Assembly (NCBI GenBank): GCA_964434865.1
Contig: CAYSWV010000011.1
Span: 14,611 to 78,610 of the forward strand
DNA: 64,000 bases
From: an uncultured bacterium
Lineage (GTDB): Bacteria; Cyanobacteriota; Cyanobacteriia; Thermostichales; Thermostichaceae
Direction: 5' to 3'
The translations under genes and the position numbers were made by a program. Positions 8,504-50,583 of the stretch are shown here, piece by piece. Within the stretch, counting starts at the first letter, position 1; each line of letters opens with the position of its first letter. The notes beneath the pieces are model-generated. The model saw only the letters and a list, made by a program, of their open reading frames with translations. It searched no databases and had not been told where the DNA came from.

Positions 8504-9547
8504 ATGAGTATGACCCGTCGCCAGATAATAATCGCTACCTTATCTTCAATTCTACTCGGCTTGGGTGGAATCTGGGCTGGACACAAGCTACTCTCTAAAC
8601 ACCAGGTAGTGGCCCAAGCTCAAGAGCCTTTATCTGGAACGATGACACTTTATACCTCTGATCCAGATAGTATTATTAACCAAGTAATCAATGATTTTAA
8701 TGAAGTCCATCCTGAAATCAAGGTTAATATTTTTCGTTCAGGTGGAACTGAAGTCGTTTCAAAACTCCAGGCTGAAGCCCAGGCGGGTCAAATTCAAGCT
8801 GATGCCATCATGGTGGCGGATGGGGCTTACATTCAAGAAATGATCGAGAACGATGCGTTGCTGTCTTATCGACCCGAAAACGCAGATAAGGTGCCCGATA
8901 TTTACCACTACGGCGATGATCAGGCTCATGAGGTCCGTCTAACGTTTGTGGTGATTGCTTACAACACGTTACAAGTCCAAACGCCACCTCAAGGATATGC
9001 TAATTTGCTGGATCCCCAGTACCGGGGCCGAATTGCTTCGACTAATCCTTTATTTAACGGTACTGCCTTTTCGCAAATGGGAACTTTTGTTAGTAAGGAT
9101 GAGTTTGGGTGGGATTTCTTTGAGAACCTAGAAGCTAATGATGTGAAATTTGAGCAAGGTAACACCGGCTTAGCGGCTAAGGTTGCTAATGGGGATTATG
9201 CACTAGCTAGTACGGTTGATATTGTTGTTCGATCACTGATCCGGGAAGGATCACCGATTCGGTATGTGTGGCCCCAAGAAGGAACACTGCAGATTCAAAC
9301 GCCTTTTGCCATTTTGAAGGATAGTCCGAATGTAGAGCTTGCTAAAACCTTATTGGATTATCTGTATTCTGATCGAGCTCAGAATCTCTACCTAGATTTG
9401 GGATTTGTATCGCCCCGTGAGGATCTGCCAAAGCCTGATGATGAGGCCTTGGGTGAGATCAATGTCATTCAGGTTGACAATGACTATATTAAATTGAATC
9501 GAGAAGCCTTACGAGAGGGGTTTACACAACGCTTTGGTGGGGCTTAA
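8504..9547 (+). CDS. ABC importer substrate-binding protein (Fe3+/family-1 type)
   Basis: Start chosen at MSMTRRQIIIATL (twin-arginine-like signal). It is the first gene of an SBP-permease-ATPase operon. Confidence 0.7.
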   Translation: MSMTRRQIIIATLSSILLGLGGIWAGHKLLSKHQVVAQAQEPLSGTMTLYTSDPDSIINQVINDFNEVHPEIKVNIFRSGGTEVVSKLQAEAQAGQIQADAIMVADGAYIQEMIENDALLSYRPENADKVPDIYHYGDDQAHEVRLTFVVIAYNTLQVQTPPQGYANLLDPQYRGRIASTNPLFNGTAFSQMGTFVSKDEFGWDFFENLEANDVKFEQGNTGLAAKVANGDYALASTVDIVVRSLIREGSPIRYVWPQEGTLQIQTPFAILKDSPNVELAKTLLDYLYSDRAQNLYLDLGFVSPREDLPKPDDEALGEINVIQVDNDYIKLNREALREGFTQRFGGA

Positions 9548-9604
9548 TCTGAGCACCATCTCCTGAAATTGATCTTAATCTCTTAAAAAGAACAAGGATT
9601 TGTA

Positions 9605-11329
9605 GTGTCAAATGTAACTCGACCCCCAGCTGCGATGAAACTATCCACTGGAGTGCTCTACAGCGGAGTTGGCCTGACTGTTGTTCTGGTTTTAGGATTG
9701 ATTATCTATCCGTCCTTACTTCTGGTAGGGCAAAGTTTTTGGGCAGATCAGATCACGTTAGCCAATTATCAAGAGATCTTGAGTCAAACTCAAACTTATC
9801 AAGTGCTGGGAAATAGTCTAGTGGTGTCTGGTACTTCGACAGTGATAGCGACCTTTTTAGGCACTTTATTAGCTTGGTTAGTGGCTCGGACCGATCTGCC
9901 TTGGCAACGGTTTTGGCGGGCAGCCTTGCTAGTACCTTATATGATCCCACCTTTTATTGGGGCGATTGCATGGACCTATTTACTGGGTCGGGCTGGCTAC
10001 TTAAATAAAATTTGGATGGCCGTGACACAATCGTCTGATCCATTGGTGATTTTGTCTGGCCCCATTGGGATTATCTTTGTCATGACCTTGTTTAGCTTCC
10101 CTATCGCCTATCTGGTCACCCTAGGTCCTTTAGAACAAATGGATCCGGTATTAGAAGAAGCAGCACGAATGTCTGGTGCGAATCCGTTACAAACGCTGAA
10201 AGATATTGTAGCCCCTTTAATCTTGCCGAGTATGGGGTCGGCAGCGCTGTTAATCTTCTTACTTCTGATGGCCAATTTTGGGATCCCTTCAGTGATTGGG
10301 CTACCCGATCGATACTACGTGATGACAACCCAGATCTATTCCTTAATTTTAAATTATTCAAAAGCTTACAACCTGCAACTTGCAGCGGCTTTAGCAATGG
10401 TGCTGGTTCTGATTGCAATCTTAGGATTACAGACCCAACACTGGATTTTAAGATCAGATCGATACCAAATTGTCACCGGGCGTAGTACCCAATCCCAGCC
10501 ATTGGCCCTAAAAGGTTGGAAACCTGTGGTGCTAGTGGGGCTAGGAGTGCTACTAGGATTCACCGTAATAGCCCCCTTGATCGCGATCTTATTGAATTCG
10601 TTGTTACGGGCCTTAGGCTTACCGCTAGCTTGGGAGAATTTAACGTTGAAGCACTACCATGCTGTGCTGTGGGGTGTCCCTAAAGTGCGCCGTGCAATCA
10701 TAAACAGTCTCCTTCTAGCCACAGGCTCAGCTAGCGGAATCGCTGCTCTATCTATGTTGATCAGTTATCTAGTAGTACGTCTCAAGATCAGAGGTAGCCG
10801 CTGGTTAGAGGCTATGGTCACCATTCCCTATGCCATTCCGGGTACTGTGGTGGCCCTAGCTTTGATCCTGGCCTTTCTCAACCCAATTCCAGGACTTAGG
10901 ATCACCCTGTACAACACCATTTGGATCTTATTCATTGCTTATCTAGGCCGATTTTTGACCTTTGGTCTGCGGTCTATCAGTGCTGGGCTAGCTCAAATCG
11001 ATCCTGAACTTGAACAGGCGGCTCGGGTTTGTGGAGCGGCGCCAACTCGCGTGATTTGGGATGTCACACTGCCTCTGATCCGAAGTAGTGCCTTTGCAGG
11101 TTGGTTTTTAGCTTTTGTACCTTGCTTGGCAGAGCTAACGGTCTCTATCCTGCTAGCTTCAGTAGGGACTGAAACCCTAGGCACAACGGTCTTTGGTTTA
11201 TATGAAGAAGGGAAAGTTGGTATGACAGCGGCCCTGTCGTTACTGGTAACAGGTTTAATCTTCGGGATCTATGGCTTGGCACGTTGGGCCACTCGAGGGC
11301 AAGCGAGTGTCTGGAGTGGGGGGGGCTAA
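9605..11329 (+). CDS. ABC importer permease, fused two-domain (FbpB/ThiP-like)
   Basis: 574 aa with about 12 TM segments arranged as two tandem MalFG-type halves. GTG start; an alternative ATG lies at 9635. Confidence 0.8.
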   Translation: MSNVTRPPAAMKLSTGVLYSGVGLTVVLVLGLIIYPSLLLVGQSFWADQITLANYQEILSQTQTYQVLGNSLVVSGTSTVIATFLGTLLAWLVARTDLPWQRFWRAALLVPYMIPPFIGAIAWTYLLGRAGYLNKIWMAVTQSSDPLVILSGPIGIIFVMTLFSFPIAYLVTLGPLEQMDPVLEEAARMSGANPLQTLKDIVAPLILPSMGSAALLIFLLLMANFGIPSVIGLPDRYYVMTTQIYSLILNYSKAYNLQLAAALAMVLVLIAILGLQTQHWILRSDRYQIVTGRSTQSQPLALKGWKPVVLVGLGVLLGFTVIAPLIAILLNSLLRALGLPLAWENLTLKHYHAVLWGVPKVRRAIINSLLLATGSASGIAALSMLISYLVVRLKIRGSRWLEAMVTIPYAIPGTVVALALILAFLNPIPGLRITLYNTIWILFIAYLGRFLTFGLRSISAGLAQIDPELEQAARVCGAAPTRVIWDVTLPLIRSSAFAGWFLAFVPCLAELTVSILLASVGTETLGTTVFGLYEEGKVGMTAALSLLVTGLIFGIYGLARWATRGQASVWSGGG

Positions 11330-43952: not shown

Positions 43953-45308
43953 ATGATAGAGACACGGCCTATTCCTAACTCTCAACAGCCAATCCATTGG
44001 CTACAGATTAAACCCACCACTCTGATCACAGCTTTAACTAGCCTAGGGGTTTCAGTACTAGCCTTGATGACTGTGGGCTCATTGGGGCAGCGGTTGCATC
44101 AACTGCAAATTGAAACTGCGTTCGTTGTGCAACCGATGGAGCCAATTATTGCTACAGACTGGGGTACTCTACACCACATTTATGTTCAGGAAGGTGAAAT
44201 TGTACAGGTAGGCCATCCACTAGTCCGAGTCGATCGGGATCTAGCCATCGAAGATGAGATTGCCCGTTTGGAGGGTTGGATTTTAGCTCAAAGAAGAGAA
44301 CGGTTCCGACTTCAAGAGCAACTGCTCACACTTGAACGACAACAGCAGCAGGCCCACCTCAATTTAGAAGCTGCCACCAGTGCCATTGCTCTGGAGCAAC
44401 AACAAATCCCGGCTCGCAGTGCGATTGCTCAATCTCAAGTTGATGCTGCCCGCCAAGAGGTAGATGCCCTAGCTCAGCAACTGAATGTAGCCGAAGCTCA
44501 ACATGATCGACTCAAGGCCCTTTTGGATCAAGGGGCTATTCCTCAAATGGCTTTTGACGAAACGGTTGCTGAGCTTGCCCATTTACAAGGAGCATGGCAT
44601 AAAGCTCAGGAGACACTCACCATTGCTCAAGCTGTTTTGATCGGCACGATACGAGGAGATTTTGTGGAGCAAGATCAGTTACAGGGACAACTCCCCACCC
44701 TCGCGTTACAACGAGATATGGCAGAAAAACGTCTCAAGACTCTCACTGATCAGAGACAAGGTTTAACAGTTCTAATTGAGGACCTCGATCAAGAGATAAC
44801 GACTCTTCAAACCAGGCAAGATCAGCTGTTAGCTCGCCGTGATTTGGGTTCTGAGCTAGCCAAAATCTATGCAGCTCCAGTCACAGGAGTTGTGGCTAAG
44901 ATCTTGCGCTCACCAGGTAACTCCGTCAGTCGTGGAGCCACTCTAGTAGTTGTGCAGCATCAGAAAGATCAGCCTCAAATCACAGCCTACCTAACTCATG
45001 ATCAAGCTCAACAATTGGCCCTAGAGCAACCTGCCTCAATTTATATCCCTACAACTGGACAAACGTATCCCGCCCATATATCAAAGATTGATTGGACTGG
45101 TGGTCGAGTAGCTGATGCTCTTGATCCACTAGCACCTACTTGGAGCATTGATCCGTTGGTTCCCCCATTGCCTGTACAGGTTCATCTCACTATTCAACAT
45201 AATAATCTTGACATACCCAACGGATCTCCAGTTGTTGCCACTTTAGAGAAGCGTCAGAGTGTAGTACAACGACTTCAGCAGGGCTTTCAACTCAGCCGCC
45301 GTTACTAG
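43953..45308 (+). CDS. HlyD-family membrane-fusion (periplasmic adaptor) protein
   Basis: N-terminal TM. Lipoyl-like VQEGEIVQVGHPLVRVD. A long Q/L/A-rich coiled coil. C-terminal AAPVTGVVAKILRSPGNSVSRGATLVVV. Confidence 0.65.
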   Translation: MIETRPIPNSQQPIHWLQIKPTTLITALTSLGVSVLALMTVGSLGQRLHQLQIETAFVVQPMEPIIATDWGTLHHIYVQEGEIVQVGHPLVRVDRDLAIEDEIARLEGWILAQRRERFRLQEQLLTLERQQQQAHLNLEAATSAIALEQQQIPARSAIAQSQVDAARQEVDALAQQLNVAEAQHDRLKALLDQGAIPQMAFDETVAELAHLQGAWHKAQETLTIAQAVLIGTIRGDFVEQDQLQGQLPTLALQRDMAEKRLKTLTDQRQGLTVLIEDLDQEITTLQTRQDQLLARRDLGSELAKIYAAPVTGVVAKILRSPGNSVSRGATLVVVQHQKDQPQITAYLTHDQAQQLALEQPASIYIPTTGQTYPAHISKIDWTGGRVADALDPLAPTWSIDPLVPPLPVQVHLTIQHNNLDIPNGSPVVATLEKRQSVVQRLQQGFQLSRRY

Positions 45309-45378
45309 CATAAGCTGATTGATCTACCACTCAATCATAAATCAACTAGGGACAGAGCTTGCAGTGAGGAACGACCTG

Positions 45379-46638
45379 ATGGTTTTATTTCTGATGTCCT
45401 TGACAGGTGTGCTTCTGGTAGCAACCATCGCCTCTCAATTTTCCGATCGATTTGCTCAACGTCGTCAACATATTCAGTGGCGGGTACATGTCAATGGCAT
45501 TCGCGGCAAGTCAACTGTCACTCGCTATGTCAGCGCCATATTTCGAGTAGCTGGCTATCATACTTTTGGCAAAACAACGGGAACAGCAGCCCGTATCCTA
45601 CTACCCAATGGTATGGATTTTGACTTTGGTCGCAAGGGGGAAGCAGACATTAATGAGCAGGTCACCATCCTAAACCAATTTATGCAACAAGGAGCTGAAG
45701 CTGTAGTCATGGAATGCATGGCTGTTAACCCAGCTTATGCTGAATGGCTAGAGCGGAAAGTGATGCAAGCCCACATCGGCATTATTACTAACGTTCGTCT
45801 GGATCACACTGACTACATGGGTGAAACACTACCTGAAATTGCTCAATCACTCGCAGTGACAATACCCACCAGGGGGCTTTTCATTACCTCAGAAACCAAC
45901 CCGGAACTCCTACAAATTTTAGCTGAACAGGCCACTGCAAGAGGATCTCAACTGTTAACGGCTCATGCTAATTTGATCACTCCAGAGGATATGCAGGGAT
46001 TTGACCACTTTGCTATTGAGGAAAATGTAGCTATAGGTTTGAGAGTGGCTCAGTTTTTGAAAGTTCCTCGAAACTTGGCCCTGCAAGCTATGCAAACAGC
46101 GGTTCCTGATCCAGGCGCATTTACAGTCCAGCATCTTGAATTCCAAGGATATTCAATAGCTTGGGCTAATCTCTTTGCTGTCAATGATCGCGAAAGCTTT
46201 ATCTTCATTTGCAATCGTTTATTTCAGCAATACCCTCATCATCATAGGGTTATCATTCTCAACAATCGTCATGATCGACCGACTCGAGTTGAGTTGTTCG
46301 CTCGCATAGCTCAGGATCTCAAGTTTGAGCGAGTAATTACTTTTGGAGACTATGAGGCAGGTGTCAATGCTATGTTTCCGGCTGACCCCAATTGTGTCAT
46401 CAACCTGGGTAACTCTACCCCCTACAAGTATGCACAAGGTGAGGATCTACTCAGCCGTATGATTGCAGATTTAAAGGCACAGCCCATTTTGTTGATGGGT
46501 ACTGTCAATATCCACACACACCAGGCTGAGACCCTGCTGCACTTTTTAGCTGATGTTCCCGACTCAAAGGTTCAACAAACCTTAGAACCTGTTAGCTGCC
46601 TTACGGCCCCTCCCGGGTTATATAGAGATCTTGGTTAA
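45379..46638 (+). CDS. pgsB: Poly-gamma-glutamate synthase PgsB/CapB (Mur-ligase-like amide ligase)
   Basis: VHVNGIRGKSTVTRY, GKTTGTAAR, ECMAVNPAY and PDPGAF are all collinear with B. subtilis PgsB as I remember it. The N-terminal TM is as in PgsB. ATG at 45379 is preferred over TTG at 45319. Confidence 0.85.
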   Translation: MVLFLMSLTGVLLVATIASQFSDRFAQRRQHIQWRVHVNGIRGKSTVTRYVSAIFRVAGYHTFGKTTGTAARILLPNGMDFDFGRKGEADINEQVTILNQFMQQGAEAVVMECMAVNPAYAEWLERKVMQAHIGIITNVRLDHTDYMGETLPEIAQSLAVTIPTRGLFITSETNPELLQILAEQATARGSQLLTAHANLITPEDMQGFDHFAIEENVAIGLRVAQFLKVPRNLALQAMQTAVPDPGAFTVQHLEFQGYSIAWANLFAVNDRESFIFICNRLFQQYPHHHRVIILNNRHDRPTRVELFARIAQDLKFERVITFGDYEAGVNAMFPADPNCVINLGNSTPYKYAQGEDLLSRMIADLKAQPILLMGTVNIHTHQAETLLHFLADVPDSKVQQTLEPVSCLTAPPGLYRDLG

Positions 46639-46645
46639 TGTCACC

Positions 46646-47647
46646 ATGCTCAATATTCTCAGCACTCTTCATACAGCAGATAGCTACCGACTGACTTTAC
46701 TACTAGGGGTCTTTATCACGATTACCTATCGCAACATGTACGGCATTATTCCAGGCGGTTTGATTGTGCCAGGGAGCTTAGTTGTCCTACTTATCTTGTC
46801 TCCGGTCTGGTTTGTGACAGTGTTAGGACTATCCTTTATAGTTTATGGGATCTATCAGTATGGGTTCCGCAGCACTGACTATAAGCGTCGAACTCCTATG
46901 TATATTCTGGCTTGCCTCTCGCTAAGCCTTTCTAGTATTGTTGCCTTCTACTACAGCCGGTGGGGCTTGATGCCCTTTTCACTAGATAGCCAGGTAGGCA
47001 GTATTTTACCTGGGGTGATTGCTTTTAACCTGAGCAAGCAGAAAGTAGGCCGGAGCACCTACGCACTTGTAGTTTGTACAGGTCTTACCTTTATTTGTGT
47101 TCTGGGAATAGTAGGTTTTCTACATTACCTTGGGATCCAACAACCATTTGCTGCAGCAACCTCACCCCAGATCGTTTTACAGCTGAACTATCCCCTGATT
47201 CATTTTTTCTTAGCATTAGGTGTGGGCTATTTAATTTATCGACAACAGGATATACGTTCAGGCGGGTATATGGTAGCACCAGTTGTAGCCCTGGCCTTGC
47301 TGAACCCATTCACGGCACTTTACTTCTTATTAGGCTGTGGAATGGTTTATACTTTGGCGCAGCTCTATTGTGAATGGACACTCACTGTAGGGTTACGCCG
47401 TTATGTTGTTGTCCTCAGTTTAAGTACCCTTTACCTGTGGGGGACTGATCTAGCGCTACAATCTATTGATCCAACCCTGCCCGTACTGCAAGGGGGATCC
47501 TATATATTGAATATTGCCATGCTTTCCTATGTAAATGATGCTATCGTGTATCGCGATCGGCCTGTTTTGAAATATATGATACTTCTGACTGGAATTTCAA
47601 TGGTCGGCATTGTGGTTGTAGATATAGTCAGCTACTTACTGGTTTAA
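46646..47647 (+). CDS. PgsC/CapC-like membrane protein, about twice normal length (internal duplication or fusion)
   Basis: First half: YGIIPGGLIVPGSL, YKRR and ILPGVIAFNLSKQK, matching CapC GIVPAGLVVPGYL / YGRR / IVPGLIANTIQKQ. The second half carries a weaker echo (GGYMVAPVVALALL). Confidence 0.65.
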   Translation: MLNILSTLHTADSYRLTLLLGVFITITYRNMYGIIPGGLIVPGSLVVLLILSPVWFVTVLGLSFIVYGIYQYGFRSTDYKRRTPMYILACLSLSLSSIVAFYYSRWGLMPFSLDSQVGSILPGVIAFNLSKQKVGRSTYALVVCTGLTFICVLGIVGFLHYLGIQQPFAAATSPQIVLQLNYPLIHFFLALGVGYLIYRQQDIRSGGYMVAPVVALALLNPFTALYFLLGCGMVYTLAQLYCEWTLTVGLRRYVVVLSLSTLYLWGTDLALQSIDPTLPVLQGGSYILNIAMLSYVNDAIVYRDRPVLKYMILLTGISMVGIVVVDIVSYLLV

Positions 47648-47834: not shown

Positions 47835-47907
47835 TGGAGCTTAGCGGATTCGAACCGCTGACCCCTTCAATGCCATTGAAGTGCTCTACCAACTGAGCTA
47901 AAACCCC
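47835..47907 (-). tRNA. tRNA-Ala (anticodon GGC)
   Basis: The reverse complement GGGGTTTTAGCTCAGTTGGTAGAGCACTTCAATGGCATTGAAGGGGTCAGCGGTTCGAATCCGCTAAGCTCCA folds as a cloverleaf. Anticodon loop is AT-GGC-AT. The G3:U70 alanine identity pair, the GTTCGAATC T-loop and discriminator A are all present. CCA is not encoded. Confidence 0.9.
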
Positions 47908-48663: not shown

Positions 48664-50583
48664 TCAAACTAGGATCTCTCCACTTTCTTGTAGAGCATGC
48701 AGACGACTATATAAACCTGGTTGTTGCAATAGATCAGTGTGGCTACCCATTTCTGCAATGCGACCTTGATCTAGCACCACAATTAGATCAGCATCTCGAA
48801 TGGTACTGAGGCGGTGAGCAATAATAATCGTTGTCCGTGTACCCAAGATGCCCTGCATGGCTTGTTGAATAGCTCGCTCAGATTCATAATCGAGGCTAGA
48901 GGTAGCTTCATCAAAAATCAGAATTTCAGGATCTTTGATCAAGGCTCTGGCAATGCCTAGACGTTGCTTTTGCCCACCAGACAGTCGGATCCCTCGTTCA
49001 CCTACCATCGTGGTGTAACCCTGCGGGAGATCCCGAACAAACTGATCAACCTGAGCGATTCGACAGGCAGCCTGCACTTGTTCAAAACTAGCCGCTGGGT
49101 CCCCATACACTAAATTTTCCAAGATCGTGCCATTAAACAGATCAACATCTTGATGCACAATAGCCAGGCGTTGTCGAAACTCGGCGACATCAAGGGTCTG
49201 GATATTTTGGCCATTTAATAAAATTTGGCCTGCTTGGGGTTCAAAATAGCGAAACAAGAGCTTCACTAACGTTGACTTTCCTGATCCTGACCGCCCCACT
49301 AAAGCAACGGTTTGCCGGGGTTTGATCATGAGATTGAACTCTTGTAAAACAGGCCGGTTGGTATGATAGCCAAAGGTAACCCAACGAAATTCAAGTTGGC
49401 TAGCAATGGTAGGTTGCTGAACGGTTGTTTGTGCACCTCTCCAGGCGTTCTCTCCCAACGAGACAGCATCGGCGCCAGCTGGCAATTTCAAAAACTCGTC
49501 TAGTCGGGCCATTGCTGCATATCGCCGGGCAAAGTACTCCGCAAACGTGCCAATGGGGATCACCTCTGTAAAGGCCATACCCGAAACCGTTAAAACCATC
49601 ACAAAGTGCCCTAGGGAGATCACCCCTCTTAAGGTGGCCACTAGAGCAAACAGTAAGATCAAAAAGGTACAACCTTGAACTACAGTAGTTCGCAGCACAT
49701 TCAGTTTCACATAGCCATGATGGATACGATAGTTCAAAATCTTAAATTCTCGATTCAATCGCTCCTGCTGCCGTTTTAACTCGCGGGATTCGGTGGCAAA
49801 GGCTTTGATGGTTTTAATGTTAGTAATGATTTCAGAGGTTCGGCTGCTAGTTTCCTCGCCGTAGTCTTCTAACTGTTTTTCCCATCGGCTCAGCTTGCGC
49901 AACTGTTGTAAGCTCAACCCCAAAATCATGGTGAAGGAAATCAAAAAGACAATGCCAATCCGCCATTCAGTCACCAGGATCATGCTAAAGATCGCCATTA
50001 CTCGCACTAGCTTCGGGATCATCTGCCCTACAATTTGGGGAAAAGTCCACGTATGGTTGGAAATACCTCGTGCGACTAAAGCAGCGATGCGGCCTGAATT
50101 ATTTTCATCAAAGTAATCGAGAGGCAAGGTCAAGAGCTTCATATGAGCTTCAGTATAATGATCTCGCTTAGCTCGATGTGAAATATCCCAGTGCATCCAG
50201 TGAGTTAACCACGGTTGAATTGGAGCTTTGAGCACAGTCACGATAAAAACCGTTCCCATTAAGACTGCTAGCGTTAAAGCCGATCCTTGTGGCCACTCTA
50301 CCCTGGCTGCTAGGGGCGTCACGATAGATTGAACTAAGGGATCAGGGGGATGTTGGGAGAGCACATTGAGAATTTGACCAATAGCATAGGGAACCACAAG
50401 ATCAATAATTTCAAACAGGCTGCTAGCTACTAGCGTAAACAGCGAAGGGGTCCAATAGCGACGATAGTAAGCCAGAATATCTTGTAAAGTAGCCATAATG
50501 GGATCGAGTGATGCAAAGCGCCACGGTTTTAACATATCCGTGATGTCAGCGACATCAGGTGTTTTAGATTGGGTTGAATCCAA
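48664..50583 (-). CDS. ABCB-type exporter (fused 6-TM permease plus ATPase, MsbA-like)
   Basis: GRSGSGKST, LSGGQKQRLGIARAL and ILIFDEATSSLD, with an N-terminal TMD. TTG start; an alternative ATG lies at 50535. Confidence 0.85.
   Translation of the reverse strand: MDSTQSKTPDVADITDMLKPWRFASLDPIMATLQDILAYYRRYWTPSLFTLVASSLFEIIDLVVPYAIGQILNVLSQHPPDPLVQSIVTPLAARVEWPQGSALTLAVLMGTVFIVTVLKAPIQPWLTHWMHWDISHRAKRDHYTEAHMKLLTLPLDYFDENNSGRIAALVARGISNHTWTFPQIVGQMIPKLVRVMAIFSMILVTEWRIGIVFLISFTMILGLSLQQLRKLSRWEKQLEDYGEETSSRTSEIITNIKTIKAFATESRELKRQQERLNREFKILNYRIHHGYVKLNVLRTTVVQGCTFLILLFALVATLRGVISLGHFVMVLTVSGMAFTEVIPIGTFAEYFARRYAAMARLDEFLKLPAGADAVSLGENAWRGAQTTVQQPTIASQLEFRWVTFGYHTNRPVLQEFNLMIKPRQTVALVGRSGSGKSTLVKLLFRYFEPQAGQILLNGQNIQTLDVAEFRQRLAIVHQDVDLFNGTILENLVYGDPAASFEQVQAACRIAQVDQFVRDLPQGYTTMVGERGIRLSGGQKQRLGIARALIKDPEILIFDEATSSLDYESERAIQQAMQGILGTRTTIIIAHRLSTIRDADLIVVLDQGRIAEMGSHTDLLQQPGLYSRLHALQESGEILV

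Follow-up and report, generated by a model that had tools for sequence, protein, structure and literature searches.

The DNA analyzed here, hereafter the window, is a stretch of 64,000 nucleotides from contig CAYSWV010000011.1 of an uncultured cyanobacterium of the family Thermostichaceae. We investigated a module of three genes within it, which a first-pass annotation had assigned to the synthesis of poly-gamma-glutamate (PGA). Three co-directional open reading frames (ORFs) were confirmed on the plus strand, the first two separated by 10 bp and the last two overlapping by 8 bp. With the recorded gene-caller starts, 45379 for the second gene (419 aa) and an ATG at 46646 for the third (333 aa), this overlap becomes a 7-bp gap. 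Given such tight spacing, the three ORFs form one operon. The genes, and the two domains recognized in the third of them, are the following:

43953-45308, plus strand: membrane-fusion (HlyD/EmrA-type) periplasmic adaptor, 451 aa, assigned by PF13437, an AlphaFold2 (AF2) model and Foldseek
45319-46638, plus strand: PgsB, Mur-ligase-type ATP-dependent poly-gamma-glutamate synthase, 439 aa from a TTG start, assigned by TIGR04012 and PF08245
46631-47647, plus strand: PgsCC, tandem fusion of two CapC/PgsC membrane domains, 338 aa, assigned by two PF14102 matches and hhalign
46703-47053, plus strand: CapC repeat 1 of PgsCC, canonical-like, with motifs GIIPGGLIVPG, YKRRTPMY and LPGVIAFNLSKQ (PF14102, 62 bits)
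47216-47476, plus strand: CapC repeat 2 of PgsCC, diverged, with motifs RSGGYMVAP, GLRRY and SYVNDA (PF14102, 36.9 bits, cutoff 27)

PgsB scores 312.6 bits against the equivalog model TIGR04012, 90 bits above the cutoff of 222.7, while the next-best models remain far behind (folC, 46.1 bits; MurE, at most 25 bits); it also matches Mur_ligase_M (PF08245). The same scores served to test whether the protein could be a folylpolyglutamate, Mur or cyanophycin-type ligase, and they settle that it is none of these. By its profile matches PgsB is a true member of the PGA-synthase family, as initially proposed. Its translation displays a hydrophobic N-terminal transmembrane (TM) anchor at about residues 21-41 and the P-loop G60-I-R-G-K-S-T66, and a single TM helix is likewise a property of PgsB homologues (PMC6029982). 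We retrieved 2610 homologues, and those bearing a name are labelled PgsB. In the search of the entire genome the TIGR04012 match spans window positions 45403-46527 and corresponds to the sole PgsB. Sequence comparison of PgsB with the PDB returned only weak FPGS matches (E = 3e-3), and neither a PgsB nor a PgsC structure turned up in this database.

The product of the following gene had been described as CapC/PgsC-like in its first half and as a mere series of further TM helices in its second. The first part of this description holds; the additional half is instead a diverged second CapC domain. The whole protein matches CapC (PF14102) with 79.7 bits (cutoff 27), and because each half has its own PF14102 match and hhalign aligns half 1 with half 2 over 134 co-linear columns (E = 1.1e-3), the double-length PgsC is a CapC-CapC fusion. 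The alignment pairs IPGG with RSGG and YKRR with LRRY. Invariant residues are found in both halves across 17 homologues, those of repeat 2 being R209, G211, G212, Y213, P217, R257, Y258, N302 and D303. The AF2 model (pLDDT 81.3, pTM 0.82) predicts two sets of five helices connected by a disordered linker at residues 173-181, and five is also the number of TM helices that has been predicted for PgsC of Bacillus (PMC6029982). The positive-inside count is clear for repeat 1, whose YKRR and KQK loops lie inside, and ambiguous for repeat 2 (3.6 vs 2.4 lysines plus arginines). Comparison of PgsCC with the PDB gave no sequence match and a best Foldseek TM-score of 0.23.

The gene leading the operon codes for a membrane-fusion protein (MFP). 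It matches HlyD_3 (PF13437) with 44.9 bits against a cutoff of 22.2, and it falls short of the named NCBIfam adaptor subfamilies (type I HlyD, RND, EmrA and DevB), which score 25-38 bits against cutoffs of 95-391. Its AF2 model, whose pLDDT is 79 for the protein as a whole and exceeds 90 in the hairpin, predicts a short cytoplasmic N-terminus, a TM helix (residues 23-49), a beta domain of lipoyl type that is split, a beta-barrel domain and an alpha-hairpin, in which a 94-residue helix (99-192) would return via helices 198-233 and 247-296. In Foldseek the model retrieves EmrA (4tko, E = 1e-18), chains of the EmrAB-TolC complex (8zar), MacA, AcrA/MexA and HlyD (5c21), with E values from 1e-18 to 1e-10 against the EmrA/HlyD/MacA adaptors. 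EmrA, MacA, AcrA/MexA and HlyD all dock TolC-type channels by means of such a hairpin. One canonical TolC-type protein, of 524 aa, is encoded in the genome, on contig C15. No cognate transporter gene for the MFP is present in the operon or in the syntenic loci.

Conservation of the module was examined in 32 loci of cyanobacterial type. PgsB and PgsCC are adjacent in all of them (32/32), and a gene of the MFP family lies within about 3 kb in 24, several of the remaining eight loci stopping at a contig edge. No ABC, RND or MFS partner gene was found near the module in these related loci. The gene architectures follow the clades of the PgsB tree:

Window, L005 and L006 (identical to L039): MFP (~450 aa)-PgsB-PgsCC
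Paraphyletic basal set: PgsB-PgsCC followed by a 349-aa protein without family match and a 570-603-aa MFP
Microcoleus type: PgsB-PgsCC-MFP, then a 709-aa CarboxypepD_reg plus PGA_cap protein
Picocyanobacteria: large CapA gene divergent, MFP-like 526-aa gene convergent
Moorena and Okeania: large CapA-PgsB-PgsCC

What flanks the module varies between loci: in L005 it is P450 and radical SAM, in L007 a two-component system, and in the window the CIS locus and leuD. The conserved unit is therefore the module itself. The MFP orthologues located upstream of pgsB in L005 and L006 share 53-58% identity with the adaptor of the window. In the picocyanobacterial locus L029, two genes convergent to pgsCC (9712-11292 and 8978-9736, both on the minus strand) encode proteins of 526 and 252 aa. 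The larger, though without a Pfam match, can be aligned to MFP adaptors from other loci (with that of L009, 27% identity and E = 2e-38); the smaller has no family match. A conserved protein of ~349 aa is encoded directly after PgsCC in 13 loci (L018, 9029-10078, plus strand; also L010, L011, L013-L017 and L019-L023). It has an N-terminal anchor or signal and no Pfam or NCBIfam match, is absent from the genome of the window, and is a candidate for a processing role in the periplasm in the clusters with PilZ-type adaptors described below.

The long MFPs of other lineages start with a PilZ domain, which scores 23.0 bits against PF07238 (cutoff 22.5) in L018 and 18.2 bits in L009. The strict motif RxxxR...[DN]xSxxG occurs in 10 of 18 adaptor ORFs, that is, in 10 of the 13 long forms (570-603 aa), and the remaining three long forms carry near-motif variants. 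The adaptor of the window has only ~22 residues ahead of its TM helix and no PilZ match. Since its clade is nested among the PilZ-bearing types in the PgsB tree, this compact form looks derived: the lineage of the window would have lost PilZ and shifted the adaptor gene upstream of pgsB.

A further property of the operon, already pointed out in the first-pass annotation, is the lack of PgsA/CapA and PgsE. Indeed, no PGA_cap gene is present within the window. In the genome to which it belongs (5.14 Mb, 96% complete), a profile search of the contigs identified a single copy each of PgsB, PgsCC and PGA_cap; a standard pgsBCA operon was looked for elsewhere in this genome and none was found, the only CapA-family gene being that of the 449-aa, TM-anchored PGA_cap protein on the 2.9-kb contig C155. 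We considered this protein as the missing PgsA and rejected it on phyletic grounds. Its orthologues occur in G004, G036 and G037, all without PgsB, and a gene of the C155 type is missing from G025, a genome of the L006 organism that carries the MFP-PgsB-PgsCC module of the window. Moreover, no PGA_cap gene at all was found in three independent PgsB-PgsCC genomes, namely G025, G440 (a 5.3-Mb chromosome holding L018) and G441. As CapA is thus either absent from PgsB-PgsCC genomes or uncoupled from pgsB, the absence of PgsA applies to the system and extends beyond the window. With regard to PgsE, which is short and variable, no plausible small ORF follows PgsCC on the plus strand, where the sole 20-aa frame overlaps a tRNA gene. 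No PghP-type PGA hydrolase was detected in the genome.

The absence of CapA is compatible with function because in Bacillus subtilis pgsB and pgsC, both essential, produce and excrete PGA on their own, PgsBC being the minimal functional unit (PMC6029982). Omission of pgsA in that organism changes the D/L ratio of the polymer from 75/25 to 5/95 (PMC6029982). Microcoleus, Moorena, Okeania and picocyanobacteria have large CapA-family proteins (709-791 aa) linked to pgsB-pgsCC. These consist of a CarboxypepD_reg-like domain, PGA_cap and a C-terminal extension of ~300 aa; their genes lie, for instance, at the following positions:

L009, 10727-12856: large CapA
L027, 4263-6638: large CapA
L029, 4422-6623, minus strand: large CapA

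PGA_cap proteins also match the model of the lasso-peptide epimerase MslH, C155 doing so with 76 bits, far below the cutoff. From this similarity and the D/L shift seen in B. subtilis (PMC6029982) comes the idea that CapA-family proteins might epimerize PGA; the publication on the MslH structure makes no mention of CapA/PgsA.

PgsCC fusions are rare, with 22 clusters among 5.8 billion proteins, every named one being cyanobacterial. An exhaustive HMMER search returned 61 representatives. About 35 of them (P0153, P0157-P0204) are more distant proteins of ~320 aa, 22-30% identical, aligning over both CapC repeats. One of these comes from a Candidatus Saccharimonas metagenome-assembled genome (MAG), so the doubled CapC exists outside cyanobacteria too. 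A scan of 185,579 species genomes detected 34 loci, the 32 of cyanobacterial type among them being carried by Leptolyngbyaceae-like MAGs, Microcoleus, Pleurocapsales, Moorena producens 3L, Okeania, freshwater picocyanobacteria and a Sericytochromatia MAG. In the last of these (L016, 633-1818), the PgsB match is broken at ~1204-1208 into two parts that lie in different frames, which is a frameshift or an assembly error. Two loci are labelled as other phyla: L011 (Tatlockia, a Legionellaceae MAG) and L031 (a Chitinophaga pinensis MAG) encode PgsB proteins nearly identical to those of L010 and L030, respectively, with branch lengths of 0-0.04. They are most likely mis-binned cyanobacterial contigs and not cases of cross-phylum transfer. 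Closer to the window, PgsB occurs in two of 41 relatives, and in one of 401 genomes drawn evenly from the phylum, this one being the genome of the window itself.

The names PgsB and PgsC/CapC are already given to these genes by the NCBI pipeline in many cyanobacterial genomes, among them those of the cultured Chroococcidiopsis thermalis and Coleofasciculus. In the open-access literature we found no paper on cyanobacterial PGA or pgsB, on this gene set, or on PilZ in connection with PGA, which agrees with the earlier remark that PGA is not a recognized cyanobacterial product. The "capB/capC" genes of one report (PMC9967302) were considered as cyanobacterial PGA genes and rejected, as they are lasso-peptide genes. 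We read the module as a rare variant of the Bacillus system, one that is automatically annotated in databases. It shares with PgsBCA(E)/CapBCA(E) of Bacillus an equivalog-level PgsB, a partner of the CapC/PgsC family, the order pgsB-pgsC and tight coupling. It differs in its PgsC, which is a fused duplicate (338 aa vs ~150 aa) below the equivalog cutoff, in having no PgsA/CapA or PgsE, in being led by an MFP, and in its two-membrane host.

We consider it somewhat probable that PgsB/PgsCC, the MFP and TolC constitute a synthase-dependent export system for PGA or for a very close gamma-amide polyanion, as the profile matches, the modelled adaptor and the analogies described below suggest. PgsB, held in the membrane by its single N-terminal helix, would add glutamate to the growing chain at the cytoplasmic face at the expense of ATP. 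PgsCC, resembling two linked Bacillus PgsC subunits, would be its obligate membrane partner and the probable path of translocation, a role suggested by the CapC fusion together with Bacillus genetics. In the periplasm the MFP may oligomerize around the synthase and dock with its long alpha-hairpin onto the TolC-type channel encoded on contig C15, so that the nascent polymer would exit through both membranes. As no CapA/PgsA partner is present, an L-rich product is predicted by analogy with B. subtilis (PMC6029982), and one that would be released instead of anchored. In the relatives, cyclic di-GMP (c-di-GMP) probably gates the system via the PilZ domain of the adaptor; as PilZ has been lost in the clade of the window, control there is presumably transcriptional.

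The bridge between MFP and TolC is proposed on the grounds of synteny, adaptor fold and two precedents. These are the cyanobacterial model of cellulose secretion by XcsA, the HlyD-like XcsB and TolC (PMC12430437), and the rhizobial mixed-linkage glucan system of BgsA, the MFP BgsB and TolC, in which TolC dependence is experimental (PMC13438883). Like the present module, both encode an inner-membrane polymer synthase together with an HlyD-like MFP and have the TolC-type channel encoded elsewhere, and PilZ-based c-di-GMP control is a further common feature if the relatives of the module are included. Unlike them, the synthase of the window is an ATP-dependent amide ligase with CapC and not a GT2 glycosyltransferase; furthermore, PilZ is located on the adaptor and not on the synthase in the relatives, and is absent from the window. 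The early suggestion of a role for the HlyD-type protein in exporting material through a Gram-negative envelope has gained strength from the recurrent linkage, the TolC-docking fold and these synthase-MFP-TolC systems.

Four observations weigh against this interpretation. First, the adaptor is not universally linked, because five loci with adequate flanks (L007, L008, L024, L025 and L027) have no MFP nearby. Second, other lineages add the 349-aa protein or a CapA-family protein of 700-790 aa, both absent from the genome of the window, whose minimal gene set may work differently or less completely. Third, PgsCC remains below the cutoff of the NCBIfam PgsC equivalog (TIGR04011, 53.3 vs 96.45 bits), so that its function could have shifted. 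Finally, the part assigned to TolC is suggested by the adaptor model and by analogy. A more ambitious version joins several proposals: an unstudied, c-di-GMP-gated PilZ-MFP route of cyanobacteria would push a polyamide, in place of a polysaccharide, through a TolC-type channel, the CapC-CapC fusion would reveal the translocon as a CapC dimer, possibly a pair of inverted topology, and the window would represent a minimal form, PilZ-less and CapA-less, making L-PGA. This combination is tentative, and we would sooner expect it to fail in some part than to hold as a whole.

Alternatively, the same enzymes could make another product, either a different amide polymer of mixed or modified amino acids or a glutamylated acceptor of the envelope. 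The missed PgsC equivalog cutoff and the divergence of the second repeat are in line with this possibility, as are accessory genes unlike those of Bacillus, with no PgsA and with proteins of no known family in the related clusters. Moreover, the capBCA homologues of some Gram-negative bacteria are not known to make PGA. Against it stand the position of PgsB far above the cutoff of an equivalog built for PGA synthases and an operon that contains no second ligase, acceptor-protein gene or modifying enzyme. On balance we regard another product as unlikely, and PGA or a close relative of it as the better assignment.

A second alternative concerns the adaptor, which could be a co-polymerase or periplasmic scaffold comparable to Alg44 and independent of TolC, the polymer then being periplasmic, held at the surface or released by another exit route. 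Alg44, the alginate co-polymerase, is built from a cytoplasmic PilZ domain, one TM helix and a periplasmic MFP domain (PMC3815931), and this PilZ-TM-MFP order is common to the adaptors of most related cyanobacterial clusters. Alg44 is reported to work with AlgK/AlgE and not with TolC (PMC3815931, PMC4436075), and the operon of the window has no outer-membrane gene. On the other hand, the MFP of the window has no PilZ, has an amide-polymer synthase as partner, and is not accompanied by genes of the AlgK/AlgE type. Its alpha-hairpin is very long and confidently modelled, with best matches to EmrA, MacA and HlyD in TolC complexes; a TolC-type gene is present in the genome, and the analogous BgsAB system cannot do without TolC (PMC13438883). 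An Alg44-like scaffold thus appears less likely still than a different product, and docking to TolC remains the role that we favor for the adaptor.

Very improbable, in our opinion, is that the HlyD-like gene is part of a common efflux pump or a type I secretion pump and is next to pgsB by chance. In favor of this, an MsbA-like ABC half-transporter is encoded 1 kb downstream on the opposite strand (48664-50583). However, this ABC gene is convergent, lies beyond a tRNA gene and leuD, is paired with a GT21 gene, and is missing from related loci that retain MFP-PgsB-PgsCC. Linkage to the MFP also recurs across the syntenic loci in the absence of any transporter gene. The adaptor shares with EmrA, HlyD and MacA a fold of TM anchor, lipoyl domain, long alpha-hairpin and beta-barrel; it differs from those of pumps in having no co-encoded ABC, MFS or RND transporter and in reaching no NCBIfam subfamily cutoff. 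Equally hard to credit is the view that a cluster gained by horizontal transfer has lost its function and persists as a decaying remnant: the patchy spread and the missing accessory genes of other lineages would fit, but all three ORFs are intact despite saturated synonymous sites relative to the nearest relatives, the catalytic and family motifs are conserved, the three-gene form is retained in L005 and L006, and dN is 0.17-0.40, with a dN/dS of 0.056 in the one computable case (PgsB vs L005), values that allow only a qualitative conclusion as dS is saturated in five of six comparisons.

As for the surroundings of the module, its upstream neighbor is a divergent gene for a 229-aa membrane protein. 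On the 3' side, a tRNA-Ala(GGC) gene (47835-47907, minus strand) lies 188 bp past the PgsCC stop, between the module and the convergent leuD. A 99% identical copy of this tRNA gene is found in G001, a genome of the same genus without the module, and the tRNA could be the insertion site of an island. An empty-site comparison with G001 at this position says nothing on island insertion, given ~70% nucleotide identity and heavy rearrangement. The module does lie next to the CIS locus, as was stated at the outset; this adjacency is kept in no related locus and looks coincidental. None of the CIS, GT21 or ABC genes accompanies the module in related loci, for which reason a functional link with them was rejected. 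Scanning for promoters and terminators gave counts no higher than in shuffled sequence.

The passage of PGA across membranes is unresolved even in Bacillus, and a dedicated MFP adaptor provides a specific route of export, amenable to testing, for a two-membraned cell. The occurrence in nature of CapC fused to CapC is suggestive of the stoichiometry in the membrane; if true, a CapC dimer that, with five helices per repeat, forms an inverted pair would be the first structural logic for the movement of polymer by PgsC. Through the PilZ-bearing relatives, c-di-GMP control would reach beyond exopolysaccharides to include a polyamide. Confirmation of the product would place PGA among the extracellular polymers of cyanobacteria, with a bearing on metal binding, desiccation tolerance and aggregation, and would make the three genes a CapA-free cassette for the photosynthetic production of PGA, probably L-rich.

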